From NCBI RefSeq assembly GCF_017348835.2, contig NZ_CP071375.1: a stretch of 64,000 nucleotides of DNA; one strand, given 5' to 3'. Positions within the stretch are counted from its first letter, which is position 1. Every line of letters starts with the position of its first letter. A program made the position numbers and the translations under genes. The stretch is from Escherichia coli (GTDB lineage: Bacteria; Pseudomonadota; Gammaproteobacteria; Enterobacterales; Enterobacteriaceae). Under the pieces are notes generated by a model. That model was not told the DNA's origin. It searched no databases and saw only the letters and a program-made list of their open reading frames with translations. Below, in pieces: positions 4,238 through 25,862 of this stretch.

Positions 4238-5719
4238 TCAGTTACGGAAAGGGTTATGACCGTTACTGGTGGTAGTGCGTGCGGATGTTTGCTGAACGAC
4301 GGGGGCCGGGCTATCAGGCGCATAACCATCAGCAATAGCATTCTGTTCCGGCGTTTGCGGGGCAACGTTTTCCGGATTAGTGGAAACCGGTTTGCTCAGC
4401 GCATTGTTCAGTGCCAGCAGATCCTGCTCGTTCAACGTACCCAGGGCTGACTTAATATTCAGCTGATTAATCAGGTAGTTATAACGCGCATTCGCCAGCT
4501 CTTGCTTGGCGTTGTACAGCGTGGTGGTCGCATCCAACACATCAACAATGGTACGCGTACCGACCGAGTAGCCCGCTTCCATCGCGTCTAATGAGCTTTG
4601 AGCGGAAACTACGGCTTGTTTGTAGGCGTTAATACTACTGATAGAAGCATTAATGTTGTTGAAGGAGGAACGTACGGTTTGCACGACGCTACGATGTGCG
4701 CTTTCCAGTTGCTCGCTGGCACCAACAAAGTTGTACTGTGCCTGTTTCACCTGCGAGTTAACCATTCCGCCCTGATAAATCGGCAGCGAGAAGCTCAGGC
4801 CAACTTTGTTCTGGCCCATATTGCTATCGTCATACTGGGTACCAGCGGCACCACGGGTTTTCGAACCGCTATAAGAGGTGTCAGAAATCCCGGTAGAAGC
4901 CGTTAAATCCAGAGTCGGTAAGTGACCATCCTGCGCTTGGCGAATTTGCTCGCGGGCCAGGTCCTGGCTCAAGCGTGCCTGTAACAGCGACAGGTTGCGT
5001 TTTTCGGCTTCTTTCAGCAGCGCGTTAACCGGCTGTGGTTTGTCGGTTTTAAAGTTTTCGACATTCAGCGCCGCCAGTTCCGGATAGTAGTTACCGGTGA
5101 TCTGGCGCAGCTGCTCTACCGCGTTATCAAGGTTATTACGTGCGGTCACTTCGTTCGCCAGCACGGTATCGTACTGCGCGCGGGCGTTCTGCACGTCGGT
5201 GATCGCTACCAGGCCCACGTTAAAACGTTGGGTGGTTTGATCTAATTGACGGTAGATCGCTTCTTTTTGTGCCTGTGTATAGGAAAGAACGTCAATAGCA
5301 TTCAACACGTTGAAATAAGCGGTCGCGGTGTTGAGGATCAAGGTTTGCTGATCGGTCTGATATGTGACGTCCTGAATCCCTGCTGCTTTTTCCTGCAGCG
5401 TTAACGCACGCCATTTCGACATATCAAAAATGGATTGAGTTAACTGCAGGGACGCACTGGCCGCGTTAGAGTTGATGCCGTTCGCGTCGCGGTAGCCGTT
5501 GCTATAGGTGTAATCTGCACCTAAACCTAGCTGTGGCAGTAATGGACTGCGCGCTTCATTAATTTTTTCAAAGGCAGCATCACGATCGGCGGCAGACTTA
5601 CGCAATTCCGGGTTACTAAGGCGTGCTTGCTGATAAACTTGCATCAGGTTCTCGGCCTGGCTCAACGAACTGAACCCAGAAAGGCTCAGGCCGATAAGAA
5701 TGGGGAGCAATTTCTTCAT
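4238..5719 (-). CDS. tolC: Outer membrane channel TolC
   Basis: 493 aa from MKKLLPILIGLSLSGFSSLSQA (signal peptide) followed by ENLMQVYQQARLSNPELRKSAADRDAAFEKINEARSPLLPQLGLGADYTYSNGYRDANG; ORF-track start is a 13-codon upstream extension. Confidence 0.93.
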   Translation of the reverse strand: MKKLLPILIGLSLSGFSSLSQAENLMQVYQQARLSNPELRKSAADRDAAFEKINEARSPLLPQLGLGADYTYSNGYRDANGINSNAASASLQLTQSIFDMSKWRALTLQEKAAGIQDVTYQTDQQTLILNTATAYFNVLNAIDVLSYTQAQKEAIYRQLDQTTQRFNVGLVAITDVQNARAQYDTVLANEVTARNNLDNAVEQLRQITGNYYPELAALNVENFKTDKPQPVNALLKEAEKRNLSLLQARLSQDLAREQIRQAQDGHLPTLDLTASTGISDTSYSGSKTRGAAGTQYDDSNMGQNKVGLSFSLPIYQGGMVNSQVKQAQYNFVGASEQLESAHRSVVQTVRSSFNNINASISSINAYKQAVVSAQSSLDAMEAGYSVGTRTIVDVLDATTTLYNAKQELANARYNYLINQLNIKSALGTLNEQDLLALNNALSKPVSTNPENVAPQTPEQNAIADGYAPDSPAPVVQQTSARTTTSNGHNPFRN

Positions 5720-5923
5720 TTGCATTCCTTGTGGTGAAGCAGTATTTAGCGCGATCAAACTGTAAAATTATTGCGGATTCTAGCAGAAGCCGCTACCGCA
5801 AAAGGTTGGCGTTACGTGCCATAGGGCGTTAATGTGCCTCAATTTAACACATGACTGCTCAAACGGCAGTCAAACGTCGCTGAAATTCACATTTAATTCA
5901 CTATTAGTGCCAGGACATTAACA

Positions 5924-15754: not shown

Positions 15755-16702
15755 ATGCGTTTATTTTTTTCTCTGCTGATACTGTTGTCATTCTTTGCCC
15801 GCGCGACAGAACCTGTTCAGGTCTTTACTGATGATTTAGGGCGCAAAGTCACTGTTCCTGCTCATCCAAAGAGAATTGTCTCTTTACACGATCTTGATAT
15901 CACTATTCCTCTGATTGAGCTCGGTGTACCTCCTGTCGCCAGCCACGGGCGAACCCGGCCTGACGGTAGCCATTTCATTCGATCAGGCGCGTTATTGACA
16001 GGTGTCGACTTTGATAATTCATCGATCGCTTTTATTGGCACCGCTGATATTGATATTGAAGCGATTGTGGCGGCAAAGCCTGATCTGATTATCACAGAAC
16101 CGACCCGTAATACGCCCATTGAACAACTGGAAAAAATTGCGCCCACGGTGAGCATTGATCATCTCAAAGGAGGCGCGCCAGAAATCTACCGCAAGCTGGC
16201 AGAACTGACAGGAACGCAGTCGCAGCTGGCGATACTTGAACGCCGCTATCAGGCACAAATCAATGCGCTGAAGGCGACGCTGGACAGCCAAAAAATAACG
16301 GTATCGGTGATTCAGGCAAATCAGGGAAAAATTAATGTGATGCATAGCTATCATTCGCTGGGGCGGGTATTACGCGATGCTGGTTTTCGCTTTCCGCCGC
16401 TGATTGAGAGCATTCCTGAAGGTGGGCGAATGGATGTGAGCGCGGAGCGTTTACCTGAACTGGATGCCGATTTTGTTTTTGCAACCTGGCGCGGTGACAC
16501 CGGTGGTAAACCTCAGGATGAGCTGGCAGCAATGGAAAAAGTCATGCCGGGATGGTGTCAGTTTCTGACTGCCTGTCGTTCCGGGCGTTATGTGCTGATT
16601 TCTCGTGAAGAGGCAATTTCTAACTCCTTTGCATCTCTGGGGCTGATGGCTGCGCAGATACAATCACAAATTGCGGGACGACCTCTACCGGAGGCTAAAT
16701 GA
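15755..16702 (+). CDS. Periplasmic iron-siderophore binding protein (cluster A substrate-binding protein)
   Basis: 315 aa from MRLFFSLLILLSFFARA (signal peptide), GGAG-like RBS upstream; ORF-track start is an upstream extension. Confidence 0.75.
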   Translation: MRLFFSLLILLSFFARATEPVQVFTDDLGRKVTVPAHPKRIVSLHDLDITIPLIELGVPPVASHGRTRPDGSHFIRSGALLTGVDFDNSSIAFIGTADIDIEAIVAAKPDLIITEPTRNTPIEQLEKIAPTVSIDHLKGGAPEIYRKLAELTGTQSQLAILERRYQAQINALKATLDSQKITVSVIQANQGKINVMHSYHSLGRVLRDAGFRFPPLIESIPEGGRMDVSAERLPELDADFVFATWRGDTGGKPQDELAAMEKVMPGWCQFLTACRSGRYVLISREEAISNSFASLGLMAAQIQSQIAGRPLPEAK

Positions 16703-20822: not shown

Positions 20823-21215
20823 ATGAAAAAATTCGCAGCAGTAATCGCAGTAATGGCCCTGTGCAGTGCACCGGTGATGGCAGCAGAGCAGGGCGGTTTT
20901 TCTGGCCCATCGGCAACGCAAAGTCAGGCTGGAGGATTCCAGGGGCCGAACGGCAGCGTAACGACTGTAGAAAGCGCAAAATCCCTGCGTGACGACACCT
21001 GGGTAACCCTGCGCGGCAATATCGTTGAACGCATCTCTGACGATCTCTACGTGTTCAAAGATGCCAGCGGTACTATCAATGTTGATATCGACCACAAACG
21101 CTGGAACGGCGTGACGGTGACGCCGAAAGATACGGTTGAGATTCAGGGTGAAGTCGATAAAGACTGGAATTCTGTTGAAATTGACGTCAAACAGATCCGC
21201 AAAGTAAATCCGTAA
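20823..21215 (+). CDS. ygiW: Periplasmic OB-fold (BOF) protein YgiW
   Basis: 130 aa from MKKFAAVIAVMALCSAPVMA; divergent from qseBC. Confidence 0.85.
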   Translation: MKKFAAVIAVMALCSAPVMAAEQGGFSGPSATQSQAGGFQGPNGSVTTVESAKSLRDDTWVTLRGNIVERISDDLYVFKDASGTINVDIDHKRWNGVTVTPKDTVEIQGEVDKDWNSVEIDVKQIRKVNP

Positions 21216-21267: not shown

Positions 21268-21750
21268 ATGACAAACCTGACACTGGATGTAAACATTATC
21301 GATTTCCCATCAATCCCTGTGGCGATGTTGCCGCACCGCTGTAGCCCTGAGTTGCTCAACTACAGCGTGGCGAAATTTATCATGTGGCGTAAAGAGACGG
21401 GGCTTTCTCCTGTTAACCAAAGCCAGACTTTTGGCGTCGCCTGGGACGACCCTGCCACCACCGCACCGGAAGCGTTTCGCTTTGATATCTGCGGCAGCGT
21501 TAGCGAACCGATTCCCGATAATCGTTATGGTGTGAGCAATGGTGAACTTACCGGTGGACGTTATGCCGTGGCCCGCCACGTAGGCGAGCTGGATGATATT
21601 TCACACACGATATGGGGCATTATTCGCCACTGGCTGCCTGCAAGCGGCGAGAAAATGCGTAAAGCACCGATTCTGTTTCACTACACCAATCTTGCCAAAG
21701 GGGTGACAGAGCAGCGACTGGAAACGGATATTTATGTGCCGTTGGCGTGA
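21268..21750 (+). CDS. ygiV: GyrI-like small-molecule-binding protein YgiV
   Basis: 160-aa ORF, remembered YgiV sequence. Confidence 0.85.
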   Translation: MTNLTLDVNIIDFPSIPVAMLPHRCSPELLNYSVAKFIMWRKETGLSPVNQSQTFGVAWDDPATTAPEAFRFDICGSVSEPIPDNRYGVSNGELTGGRYAVARHVGELDDISHTIWGIIRHWLPASGEKMRKAPILFHYTNLAKGVTEQRLETDIYVPLA

Positions 21751-21858
21751 TGGGGTATCTTTACCGGAGTGTGAGCCAAATCACTCGCGATAAGTTTGAG
21801 CGAACAATGCCACAGGCGTATTGTTGTTGGGCTTATAATTTCTCCGGTAAGGAATACC

Positions 21859-23466
21859 ATGTATACGCGAAATTTATTATGGCTGGTCAGCCTGGTAAGT
21901 GCGGCTCCTCTCTACGCTGCTGACGTTCCCGCCAACACACAGCTCGCCCCGCAACAAGTCTTTCGTTACAACAATCATAGCGACCCAGGTACGCTCGACC
22001 CGCAAAAGGTGGAGGAGAATACTGCTGCGCAGATTGTGCTGGATCTGTTTGAAGGTCTGGTATGGATGGACGGTGAAGGCCAGGTGCAGCCCGCTCAGGC
22101 TGAACGCTGGGAGATACTGGACGGCGGCAAGCGCTATATTTTCCATCTGCGTAGCGGTTTGCAGTGGTCCGACGGTCAGCCTCTGACGGCAGAGGATTTT
22201 GTCCTCGGCTGGCAGCGCGCGGTTGACCCGAAAACGGCAAGCCCTTTTGCTGGCTATCTGGCACAGGCGCACATTAACAATGCCGCGGCTATTGTTGCGG
22301 GTAAAGCAGATGTTACATCGCTGGGTGTCAAAGCGACGGATGATCGTACTCTTGAAGTTACGCTTGAGCAGCCGGTTCCTTGGTTCACGACGATGCTCGC
22401 CTGGCCGACGCTGTTCCCGGTTCCTCATCATGTCATCGCTAAACATGGCGATAGCTGGAGTAAGCCAGAGAACATGGTTTACAACGGTGCCTTTGTGCTT
22501 GATCAGTGGGTAGTTAACGAAAAGATTACTGCACGCAAAAATCCAAAGTACCGCGATGCGCAACATACAGTATTGCAACAGGTTGAGTATCTGGCGCTGG
22601 ATAATTCGGTCACCGGCTATAACCGCTATCGCGCGGGAGAGGTCGATCTCACCTGGGTTCCGGCGCAGCAAATTCCCGCCATTGAAAAATCACTGCCTGG
22701 TGAGCTACGAATTATTCCGCGTCTGAACAGCGAATATTACAACTTCAACCTTGAGAAACCGCCATTTAACGATGTGCGAGTGCGTCGGGCGCTATATCTT
22801 ACGGTTGATCGACAGCTTATTGCGCAAAAGGTACTGGGGTTGAGGACGCCCGCAACCACGCTGACGCCGCCAGAGGTAAAAGGCTTTAGCGTGACGACGT
22901 TCGATGAACTGCAAAAGCCAATGAGTGAGCGCGTCGCGATGGCAAAAGCCTTGCTGAAACAGGCGGGATACGACGCCTCTCATCCGCTACGCTTTGAGCT
23001 GTTCTACAACAAGTACGATCTGCATGAAAAGACCGCGATAGCGTTGTCTTCCGAATGGAAAAAATGGCTGGGTGCACAGGTGACGCTGCGCACAATGGAG
23101 TGGAAAACCTATCTTGATGCCCGACGAGCCGGTGATTTCATGCTGTCTCGGCAGTCGTGGGATGCGACGTACAATGATGCTTCCAGCTTCCTGAACACGC
23201 TCAAAAGCGATAGTGAAGAAAACGTCGGTCACTGGAAAAATGCACAGTATGACGCCTTACTAAACCAGGCCACGCAGATCACTGATGCGACAAAGCGTAA
23301 TGCGTTGTATCAGCAGGCAGAAGTGATCATCAACCAACAAGCACCGCTGATTCCTATCTACTATCAGCCGTTAATCAAACTGCTTAAACCCTACGTTGGC
23401 GGTTTTCCGCTGCATAATCCCCAGGATTATGTCTACAGCAAAGAGTTGTATATCAAGGCACATTGA
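21859..23466 (+). CDS. ygiS: Periplasmic solute-binding protein YgiS (oligopeptide/Dpp family, SBP_bac_5)
   Basis: 535 aa from MYTRNLLWLVSLVSAAPLYA (signal peptide); ORF-track start is an upstream extension. Confidence 0.88.
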   Translation: MYTRNLLWLVSLVSAAPLYAADVPANTQLAPQQVFRYNNHSDPGTLDPQKVEENTAAQIVLDLFEGLVWMDGEGQVQPAQAERWEILDGGKRYIFHLRSGLQWSDGQPLTAEDFVLGWQRAVDPKTASPFAGYLAQAHINNAAAIVAGKADVTSLGVKATDDRTLEVTLEQPVPWFTTMLAWPTLFPVPHHVIAKHGDSWSKPENMVYNGAFVLDQWVVNEKITARKNPKYRDAQHTVLQQVEYLALDNSVTGYNRYRAGEVDLTWVPAQQIPAIEKSLPGELRIIPRLNSEYYNFNLEKPPFNDVRVRRALYLTVDRQLIAQKVLGLRTPATTLTPPEVKGFSVTTFDELQKPMSERVAMAKALLKQAGYDASHPLRFELFYNKYDLHEKTAIALSSEWKKWLGAQVTLRTMEWKTYLDARRAGDFMLSRQSWDATYNDASSFLNTLKSDSEENVGHWKNAQYDALLNQATQITDATKRNALYQQAEVIINQQAPLIPIYYQPLIKLLKPYVGGFPLHNPQDYVYSKELYIKAH

Positions 23467-23603: not shown

Positions 23604-25862
23604 ATGAGCGATATGGCAGAGCGCCTTGCGCTACATGAATTTACGGAAAACGCCTACTTAAACTACTCCATGTACGTGATCATGGACCGTGCGTTGCCGT
23701 TTATTGGTGATGGTCTGAAACCTGTTCAGCGCCGCATTGTGTATGCGATGTCTGAACTGGGCCTGAATGCCAGCGCCAAATTTAAAAAATCGGCCCGTAC
23801 CGTCGGTGACGTACTGGGTAAATACCATCCGCACGGCGATAGCGCCTGTTATGAAGCGATGGTCCTGATGGCGCAGCCGTTCTCTTACCGTTATCCGCTG
23901 GTTGATGGTCAGGGGAACTGGGGCGCGCCGGACGATCCGAAATCGTTCGCGGCAATGCGTTACACCGAATCCCGGTTGTCGAAATATTCCGAGCTGCTAT
24001 TGAGCGAGTTGGGGCAGGGGACGGCTGACTGGGTGCCAAACTTCGACGGCACTTTGCAGGAGCCGAAAATGCTACCTGCCCGTCTGCCAAACATTTTGCT
24101 TAACGGCACCACCGGTATTGCCGTCGGCATGGCGACCGATATTCCACCGCATAACCTGCGTGAAGTGGCTCAGGCGGCAATCGCATTAATCGACCAGCCG
24201 AAAACCACGCTCGATCAGCTGCTGGATATCGTGCAGGGGCCGGATTATCCGACTGAAGCGGAAATTATCACTTCGCGCGCCGAGATCCGTAAAATCTACG
24301 AGAACGGACGTGGTTCAGTGCGTATGCGCGCGGTGTGGAAGAAAGAAGATGGTGCGGTGGTTATCAGCGCATTGCCGCATCAGGTTTCAGGTGCGCGCGT
24401 ACTGGAGCAAATTGCTGCGCAAATGCGCAACAAAAAGCTGCCGATGGTTGACGATCTGCGCGATGAATCTGACCACGAGAACCCGACCCGTCTGGTGATT
24501 GTGCCGCGTTCCAACCGCGTGGATATGGATCAGGTGATGAACCACCTCTTCGCTACCACCGATCTGGAAAAGAGCTATCGCATTAACCTCAATATGATCG
24601 GTCTGGATGGTCGTCCGGCGGTGAAAAACCTGCTGGAAATTCTCTCCGAATGGCTGGTGTTCCGCCGCGATACCGTGCGCCGCCGACTGAACTATCGTCT
24701 GGAGAAAGTCCTCAAGCGCCTGCATATCCTCGAAGGTTTGCTGGTGGCGTTTCTCAATATCGACGAAGTGATTGAGATCATACGTAATGAAGATGAACCG
24801 AAACCGGCGCTGATGTCGCGGTTTGGCCTTACGGAAACCCAGGCGGAAGCGATCCTCGAACTGAAACTGCGTCATCTTGCCAAACTGGAAGAGATGAAGA
24901 TTCGCGGTGAGCAGAGTGAGCTGGAAAAAGAGCGCGACCAGTTGCAGGGCATTTTGGCTTCCGAGCGTAAAATGAATAACCTGCTGAAGAAAGAACTGCA
25001 GGCAGACGCGCAAGCCTACGGTGACGATCGTCGTTCGCCGTTGCAGGAACGCGAAGAAGCGAAAGCGATGAGCGAGCACGACATGCTGCCGTCTGAACCT
25101 GTCACCATTGTGCTGTCGCAGATGGGCTGGGTACGCAGCGCTAAAGGCCATGATATCGACGCGCCGGGCCTGAATTATAAAGCGGGTGATAGCTTCAAAG
25201 CGGCGGTGAAAGGTAAGAGCAACCAACCGGTAGTGTTTGTTGATTCCACCGGTCGTAGCTATGCCATTGACCCGATTACGCTGCCGTCGGCGCGTGGTCA
25301 GGGCGAACCGCTCACCGGCAAATTAACGTTGCCGCCTGGGGCGACCGTTGACCATATGCTGATGGAAAGCGACGATCAGAAACTGCTGATGGCTTCCGAT
25401 GCGGGTTACGGTTTCGTCTGCACCTTTAACGATCTGGTGGCGCGTAACCGTGCAGGTAAGGCTTTGATCACCTTACCGGAAAATGCCCATGTTATGCCGC
25501 CGGTGGTGATTGAAGATGCTTCCGATATGCTGCTGGCAATCACTCAGGCAGGCCGTATGTTGATGTTCCCGGTAAGTGATCTGCCGCAGCTGTCGAAGGG
25601 CAAAGGCAACAAGATTATCAACATTCCATCGGCAGAAGCCGCGCGTGGCGAGGATGGTCTGGCGCAACTGTACGTTCTGCCGCCGCAAAGCACGCTGACC
25701 ATTCATGTTGGGAAACGCAAAATTAAACTGCGTCCGGAAGAGCTACAGAAAGTCACTGGCGAACGTGGACGCCGCGGTACGTTGATGCGCGGTTTGCAGC
25801 GTATCGATCGTGTTGAGATCGACTCTCCTCGCCGTGCCAGCAGCGGTGATAGCGAAGAGTAA
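23604..25862 (+). CDS. parC: DNA topoisomerase IV subunit A
   Basis: 752 aa; N-terminus [45 protein letters not shown] with active-site Tyr region. Confidence 0.95.

Follow-up and report, generated by a model that had tools for sequence, protein, structure and literature searches.

The window, i.e. the whole 64-kb stretch of Escherichia coli DNA analysed here, carries qseC and qseB on the minus strand, followed by ygiW, ygiV, ygiS and parC on the plus strand. This is the gene order of E. coli K-12 BW25113 minus mqsR and mqsA. In the RefSeq annotation of BW25113 these two genes are situated between ygiV and ygiS, with spacers of 204 bp and 132 bp (the same values are given in PMC5120126, Table 1). 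The order ygiV-mqsR-mqsA-ygiS, which the first-pass annotation had given for K-12, is thus the annotated one. The genes around the site and the interval between them are as follows:

20823–21215, plus strand: ygiW, OB-fold stress protein, the upstream neighbour (TIGR00156, 219.9 bits; annotated as ygiW in the identical record of strain PE164)
21268–21750, plus strand: ygiV, GyrI-like and annotated as AraC-family, 160 aa, the left flank (open reading frame list; RefSeq annotation of the identical sequence)
21751–21858, no strand: ygiV-ygiS spacer of 108 bp, the unoccupied mqsRA site (junction uninterrupted in 3,056 of the 5,426 complete E. coli genomes screened)
21859–23466, plus strand: ygiS, intact, OppA-like periplasmic substrate-binding protein, 535 aa, the right flank (full-length match to NF007287)
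23604–25862, plus strand: parC, the downstream anchor gene (open reading frame list; annotation)

The stop codon TGA of ygiV is located at 21748–21750 and the ATG of ygiS at 21859–21861. The spacer at 21751–21858 therefore measures 108 bp, exactly the length that had been estimated earlier for an interval devoid of open reading frames. A mechanical listing returns a frame of 58 aa on the plus strand, one of 42 aa on the minus strand and a TTG extension of the ygiS frame as touching the spacer. Neither of the two stand-alone frames matched an NCBIfam family, and the spacer is without a credible gene. YgiS itself matches the NCBIfam equivalog NF007287 over its full length with 1290.7 bits (cutoff 1098). 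No known RNA family is present in the region 21600–22000 either: an Rfam scan with E-values up to 10 gave chance hits of 10–15 bits, far below the gathering scores.

Search for the toxin and the antitoxin

The two K-12 proteins were searched for in the 64-kb window by tblastn, which the first-pass annotation had proposed for the whole genome, and nothing was found. For the MqsR toxin (an RNase of about 98 aa) the best E-value was 3.8, over 7 aa, and for the MqsA antitoxin (zinc finger plus HTH, about 131 aa) it was 1.4. An MqsR-type reading frame between ygiV and ygiS does not occur in the list of open reading frames. When the 927-bp insert of K-12 was compared with the window by blastn, chance matches only were obtained, with E-values of at least 2.1. 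Palindromes of the MqsA operator type (ACCT-N(2-4)-AGGT), which had been suggested as possible scars, are lacking in the spacer; the two matches in the 64 kb, at 15811 and 18563, are far from the site. The strain is without the MqsR RNase and the MqsA repressor at the ygiV-ygiS locus. This is a fact of presence or absence, and no statistical signal is involved in it.

Junction with the K-12 cassette and the probable ygiS control region

The proposed alignment of the ygiV-ygiS interval with that of K-12 sets 927 bp in K-12 against the five nucleotides GGGTA in the window. Both sequences agree through GTTGGCGTGATG, which ends 2 nt after the ygiV stop codon, and again from TCTTTACCGGAG to the start of ygiS (101 bp, no mismatch). 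The 93 bp of the spacer upstream of the anchor GGAATACC-ATG match K-12 exactly, therefore the whole 101-bp block is identical. Flanking genes and their orientation are shared with the K-12 locus (b3023-b3020), at identity or about 99%, and so is this ygiS-proximal part of the spacer. The difference is the 927-bp cassette, in place of which the window has GGGTA and neither operator palindromes nor mqsR and mqsA. Most empty alleles read GGGAA at this point; among the sequences compared, the T at 21756 was seen only in the window's lineage.

The K-12 insert has 41% GC, against 51–52% in its flanks and in the window as a whole. It comprises a terminator-like hairpin just after ygiV, the operator palindromes, mqsR, mqsA and another terminator-like hairpin downstream. 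The two palindromes ACCTTTTAGGT are at positions 2115 and 2147 of the K-12 locus sequence (L001), and the right end of the insert carries AAAAGCGGGGGCAACTCGCTTTTTT. At the ends of the insert (L001 1986 and 2912) we found no terminal direct or inverted repeats and no target-site duplication. The cassette of K-12 can therefore not be assigned to transposition or to an integrase.

The elements recognized within the spacer are:

21753–21757, no strand: GGGTA, the 5 nt where K-12 has the 927-bp mqsRA cassette (exact junction mapping; outgroup alignment)
21758–21858, plus strand: conserved block, putative ygiS regulatory region (identical in K-12; 93% mean column identity, E. albertii and E. whittamii included)
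21770–21785, no strand: CRP box TGTGAGCCAAATCACT (reverse complement of a published CRP ChIP-seq site of ETEC H10407)
21803–21825, no strand: imperfect inverted repeat AACAATGCC-ACA-GGCGTATTGTT, between the CRP box and TATAAT (terminator-like hit at its core, 21807–21819; also in K-12; invariant in the alignment)
21834–21839, plus strand: perfect –10 hexamer TATAAT, no good –35 (read from the sequence; invariant in 9 of 10 aligned sequences)
21849–21853, plus strand: Shine-Dalgarno sequence AAGGA, 5 nt before the ygiS ATG (read from the sequence)

From 21758 to the ATG the spacer is almost invariant in ten aligned Escherichia sequences. It is more conserved than ygiV, the identity of YgiV to that of the window being 85–89% in the three most distant representatives. 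The CRP box is the exact 16-mer, in reverse complement, of the site AGTGATTTGGCTCACA, which was found by CRP ChIP-seq in ETEC H10407 and assigned to ygiS (PMC4287617). The ygiS gene is also contained in the list of CRP targets from genomic SELEX (PMC3105977). The box fits 9 of the 10 positions of the CRP consensus (TGTGA-N6-TCACA) and is the only match to TGTGA-N6-TCAC in the 64-kb window. From the ChIP-seq site, the SELEX listing and the genus-wide conservation we infer that a promoter of ygiS lies in the spacer and that it would be CRP-dependent. The earlier presumption that the spacer holds the ygiS promoter thus gains support from the ChIP-seq site and from TATAAT. PMC5120126 cites RegulonDB for a putative promoter of ygiS and for a terminator that follows mqsA.

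A scan for sigma-70 consensus promoters called none in the spacer and only a weak one inside the 3' end of ygiV. The lack of a –35 element accounts for this result, and an activator-dependent promoter would look alike. A start site near 21846, as implied by TATAAT, places the centre of the CRP box at about –68.5, which is not the canonical class I spacing. The inverted repeat at 21803–21825, whose terminator-like hairpin has 5 bp, could be a weak terminator of ygiV or an operator for an unknown regulator. Furthermore, one energy calculation predicts a hairpin between 21754–21777 and 21829–21858 (–43.2 kcal/mol, z = –3.85), which in read-through transcripts would cover the Shine-Dalgarno sequence and thus the ribosome-binding site of ygiS. 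The alignment gave no covariation for this predicted hairpin: 95% of the cells pair, there are no two-sided changes and shuffled alignments equal the observed one, the sequences being almost invariant. One pair of the predicted hairpin is due to the T at 21756 that is specific to this lineage.

In K-12 the mqsRA cassette interrupts the one part of the spacer that varies, 12 nt upstream of the CRP box. Therefore, the control region of ygiS was left intact by the insertion.

Distribution among genomes and the direction of the change

Our population sample consisted of 5,426 complete E. coli genomes. The mqsRA coding region was detected, at any location, in 2,298 of them (42%; blastn, 11-base words). 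These copies all share at least 99% identity, and plasmids carry none of them. A 170-bp query spanning the empty junction was matched by 5,356 genomes: contiguously in 3,056 (56%), O157:H7, O104:H4, IHE3034 and EC958 included, and in split form in about 2,300. The remaining 70 genomes gave no match. The numbers of carriers and of split junctions agree within a handful, thus very few genomes, if any, can have mqsRA at another place while the site itself is empty. The view of the module as accessory, taken already in the first-pass annotation, is borne out by these frequencies and is shared by reviews (PMC7167474, PMC5120126). In the mqsRA-positive genomes H31 (NZ_CP025913.1) and H101 (NZ_CP093317.1) an IS1 element splits mqsR, which is annotated twice, so that decay of the module appears to be ongoing in carriers.

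The window belongs to the class of mqsRA-free alleles with an intact ygiS, which amounts to about 1,700 of the 5,426 genomes (3,056 minus about 1,354 in which ygiS is deleted). It shares with other members such as O157:H7, EC958 and IHE3034 the empty junction and the conserved spacer and differs from them in point changes only, namely T instead of A at 21756 in the spacer and two SNPs in ygiV, at 21697 (Glu to Lys) and 21730 (Val to Ile). Among the genomes listed, these three changes are shared only by the pig strain PE164.

Over 20 kb the window matches PE164 at 100% identity and F2_81 nearly so; O157:H7 and O55:H7 are among the genomes that follow, at about 99.0%. Of the 25 nearest genomes listed over this distance, 24 align in one piece and one has an unrelated insertion of about 630 bp; the K-12-type mqsRA insertion is found in none of the 25. 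Because of this, the source genome is almost certainly mqsRA-negative, in agreement with the negative lineage postulated from the single sequence. The same data bear on the idea that the real genome has the cassette and that it was lost from the sequence by an assembly error or collapse. We found nothing in favour of such an artefact, and other complete genomes, independent of this one, have the identical contiguous arrangement (about 100% in PE164 and F2_81; 3,056 overall). Moreover, the cassette is unique and not repetitive in K-12. We regard the probability of an artefact as negligible.

Is the cassette an addition in K-12 or a loss here? The outgroup sample, obtained from a scan for YgiV with one genome per species, consists of five non-coli Escherichia; the scan did not return E. 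fergusonii or Salmonella. In none of the five representatives, E. albertii and E. whittamii included, is MqsR or MqsA found beside ygiV. E. albertii, E. whittamii and a third representative (L005) have ygiV, about 110 bp and an intact ygiS, with a junction of the form TGA-(N)GGG(N)A-TCTTTACCGGAG like that of the window. These sequences also speak against a fresh deletion of a K-12-type cassette in this strain, in which case the junction would be a true deletion scar. The a priori chance that toxin-antitoxin loci decay is all that we found for this possibility. However, the GGG(A/T)A kept in the window is missing from the K-12 allele, so that the window is not a deletion derivative of the latter. 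E. albertii and E. whittamii share the junction of the window with 3,056 genomes of E. coli, and no operator palindrome or gene fragment was left in the spacer. A fresh deletion is effectively refuted.

Further evidence comes from the cassette itself. Whereas E. coli genomes differ from one another by as much as about 5% in the flanking DNA, mqsRA is at least 99% identical throughout, which fits one recent acquisition. Modules of the MqsRA family occur on plasmids of Rahnella, Pectobacterium, Yersinia and Pseudomonas, with 66–75% nucleotide identity, and these plasmid-borne relatives indicate that the family is mobile. A donor of the cassette was not among the results of this plasmid search, which consisted of the relatives at 66–75% and two E. 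coli entries made up of chromosomal DNA. Since the outgroups are empty, the insert is low in GC, mqsRA is uniform compared with its flanks and the family resides on plasmids, the empty site is the ancestral as well as the majority state, and it is K-12 that carries the insertion. For an ancestral empty state no scar is expected, and none is present.

Taken together, the best explanation combines a spacer that was never occupied, a single insertion in K-12 and a role of the spacer as the regulatory region of ygiS; for this reading as a whole we estimate a probability of roughly 85%. The 108-bp interval would represent the ygiV-ygiS spacer as it originally was. K-12 belongs to a subset of E. coli in which a self-contained, horizontally acquired cassette of 927 bp would have entered 2 nt after the ygiV stop codon. 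Flanked by a hairpin on either side, the mqsR promoter with its pair of MqsA operator palindromes, mqsR and mqsA would have come in together, in this order; 5 nt would have been replaced and the control region of ygiS left untouched. The latter is presumably made up of the CRP box, the –10 element and the Shine-Dalgarno sequence (21770–21785, 21834–21839 and 21849–21853). The lineage of the window would then descend from chromosomes that never received the cassette.

That there was a single insertion event, and no prior occupancy in the lineage of the window, is what we infer from this pattern. It is also conceivable that an mqsRA-positive ancestor acquired the empty spacer back, by homologous recombination with mqsRA-free DNA. 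E. coli recombines often, and the flanks of the window are as close to mqsRA-positive K-12-type sequences (99.0%) as to other empty alleles (98.9%). In addition, the SNPs at 21697, 21730 and 21756 fall within about 60 bp and might mark a small recombination patch. On the other hand, none of the 25 closest genomes listed over 20 kb carries mqsRA at the site, and addiction by a functional toxin-antitoxin module would disfavour its loss. Such a secondary loss by allele replacement is therefore unlikely, though it is the alternative to which we give some weight, and an interval that never contained mqsRA remains the preferred explanation.

Losses of ygiS and the accessory nature of mqsRA

An empty site together with a deletion of ygiS was observed in about 1,354 of the 5,426 genomes (25%), for instance in FORC_043. 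In this allele 1,544 bp (21881–23424 of the window) are replaced by an unrelated filler of 236 bp (positions 5614–5849 of the FORC_043 locus, L002), so that the first 22 nt and the last 42 nt of ygiS are retained. Like the window, it has the empty junction, the CRP box, TATAAT and the first 22 nt of ygiS; unlike in the window, where ygiS is intact, most of the gene has given way to the filler. An Rfam scan of the filler gave nothing, and the idea that it might be a fragment of a group II intron was dropped. An unannotated segment of E. coli plasmids resembles the filler at about 84% similarity; on p1-H9, for example, this segment is located between an IS3 element and bcsC. Two of the non-coli Escherichia, MOD1-EC7003 and E1V33, have internal deletions in ygiS with differing breakpoints (L004 4053–4422 and L006 3719–4140). 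Judged by these distinct deletions, the genus has seen no fewer than three independent losses of ygiS, each of the three on an mqsRA-free chromosome. It follows from the counts that in carriers of mqsRA the gene is preserved over its first 542 bp or more.

The interval from ygiV to parC thus exists in three states: with mqsRA and ygiS (42%), empty with ygiS (about 31%) and empty with ygiS deleted (about 25%). One may speculate that this polymorphism reflects selection on the uptake of bile salts (deoxycholate) by YgiS. Given also the predicted spacer hairpin over the ribosome-binding site of ygiS, mqsRA might be kept for altering the expression of ygiS, by MqsR cleavage or by transcriptional insulation, and not only selfishly. 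We consider this quite improbable. The side observations allow a link between mqsRA, ygiS and bile-salt uptake without supporting it, and published work disagrees on such a link (PMC6918082).

The finding holds but is an ordinary one, as the accessory nature of toxin-antitoxin modules, mqsRA included, was already known. Fiedoruk et al. reportedly described chromosomal type II modules as acquired accessory intergenic cassettes in 2015. They are likewise considered horizontally acquired accessory cassettes between core genes by Ramisetty and Santhosh (2016, as cited in PMC5120126). No toxin-antitoxin system is common to the strains MG1655, W, EDL933 and UTI89 (Fraikin et al. 2020, PMC7167474). 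In a study of adherent-invasive E. coli MqsRA was not found in NRG857c, and a pan-genome study of mastitis isolates has mqsR, mqsA and ygiS among the variable genes. Our results agree with this published picture of type II modules, in which the modules are scattered patchily over the lineages of E. coli and sit between core genes with their own promoter and operator, and conceptually nothing is different.

What this analysis adds is the base-exact description of the insertion (927 bp for 5 nt, no terminal repeats), the counts in 5,426 genomes, and the state of the outgroups with the polarity that it suggests, i.e. probably an insertion in K-12-like lineages and not a loss here. It adds, furthermore, that the insertion appears to have spared a ygiS control region which is conserved in the genus and bound by CRP according to the ChIP-seq data from ETEC. 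That this strain, like most E. coli, is without MqsR and MqsA is of little importance on its own. It means, however, that statements derived from K-12 on regulation by MqsA, on the control of GhoT or ygiS by MqsR or on the "ten TA" background in persistence are not transferable to this strain.
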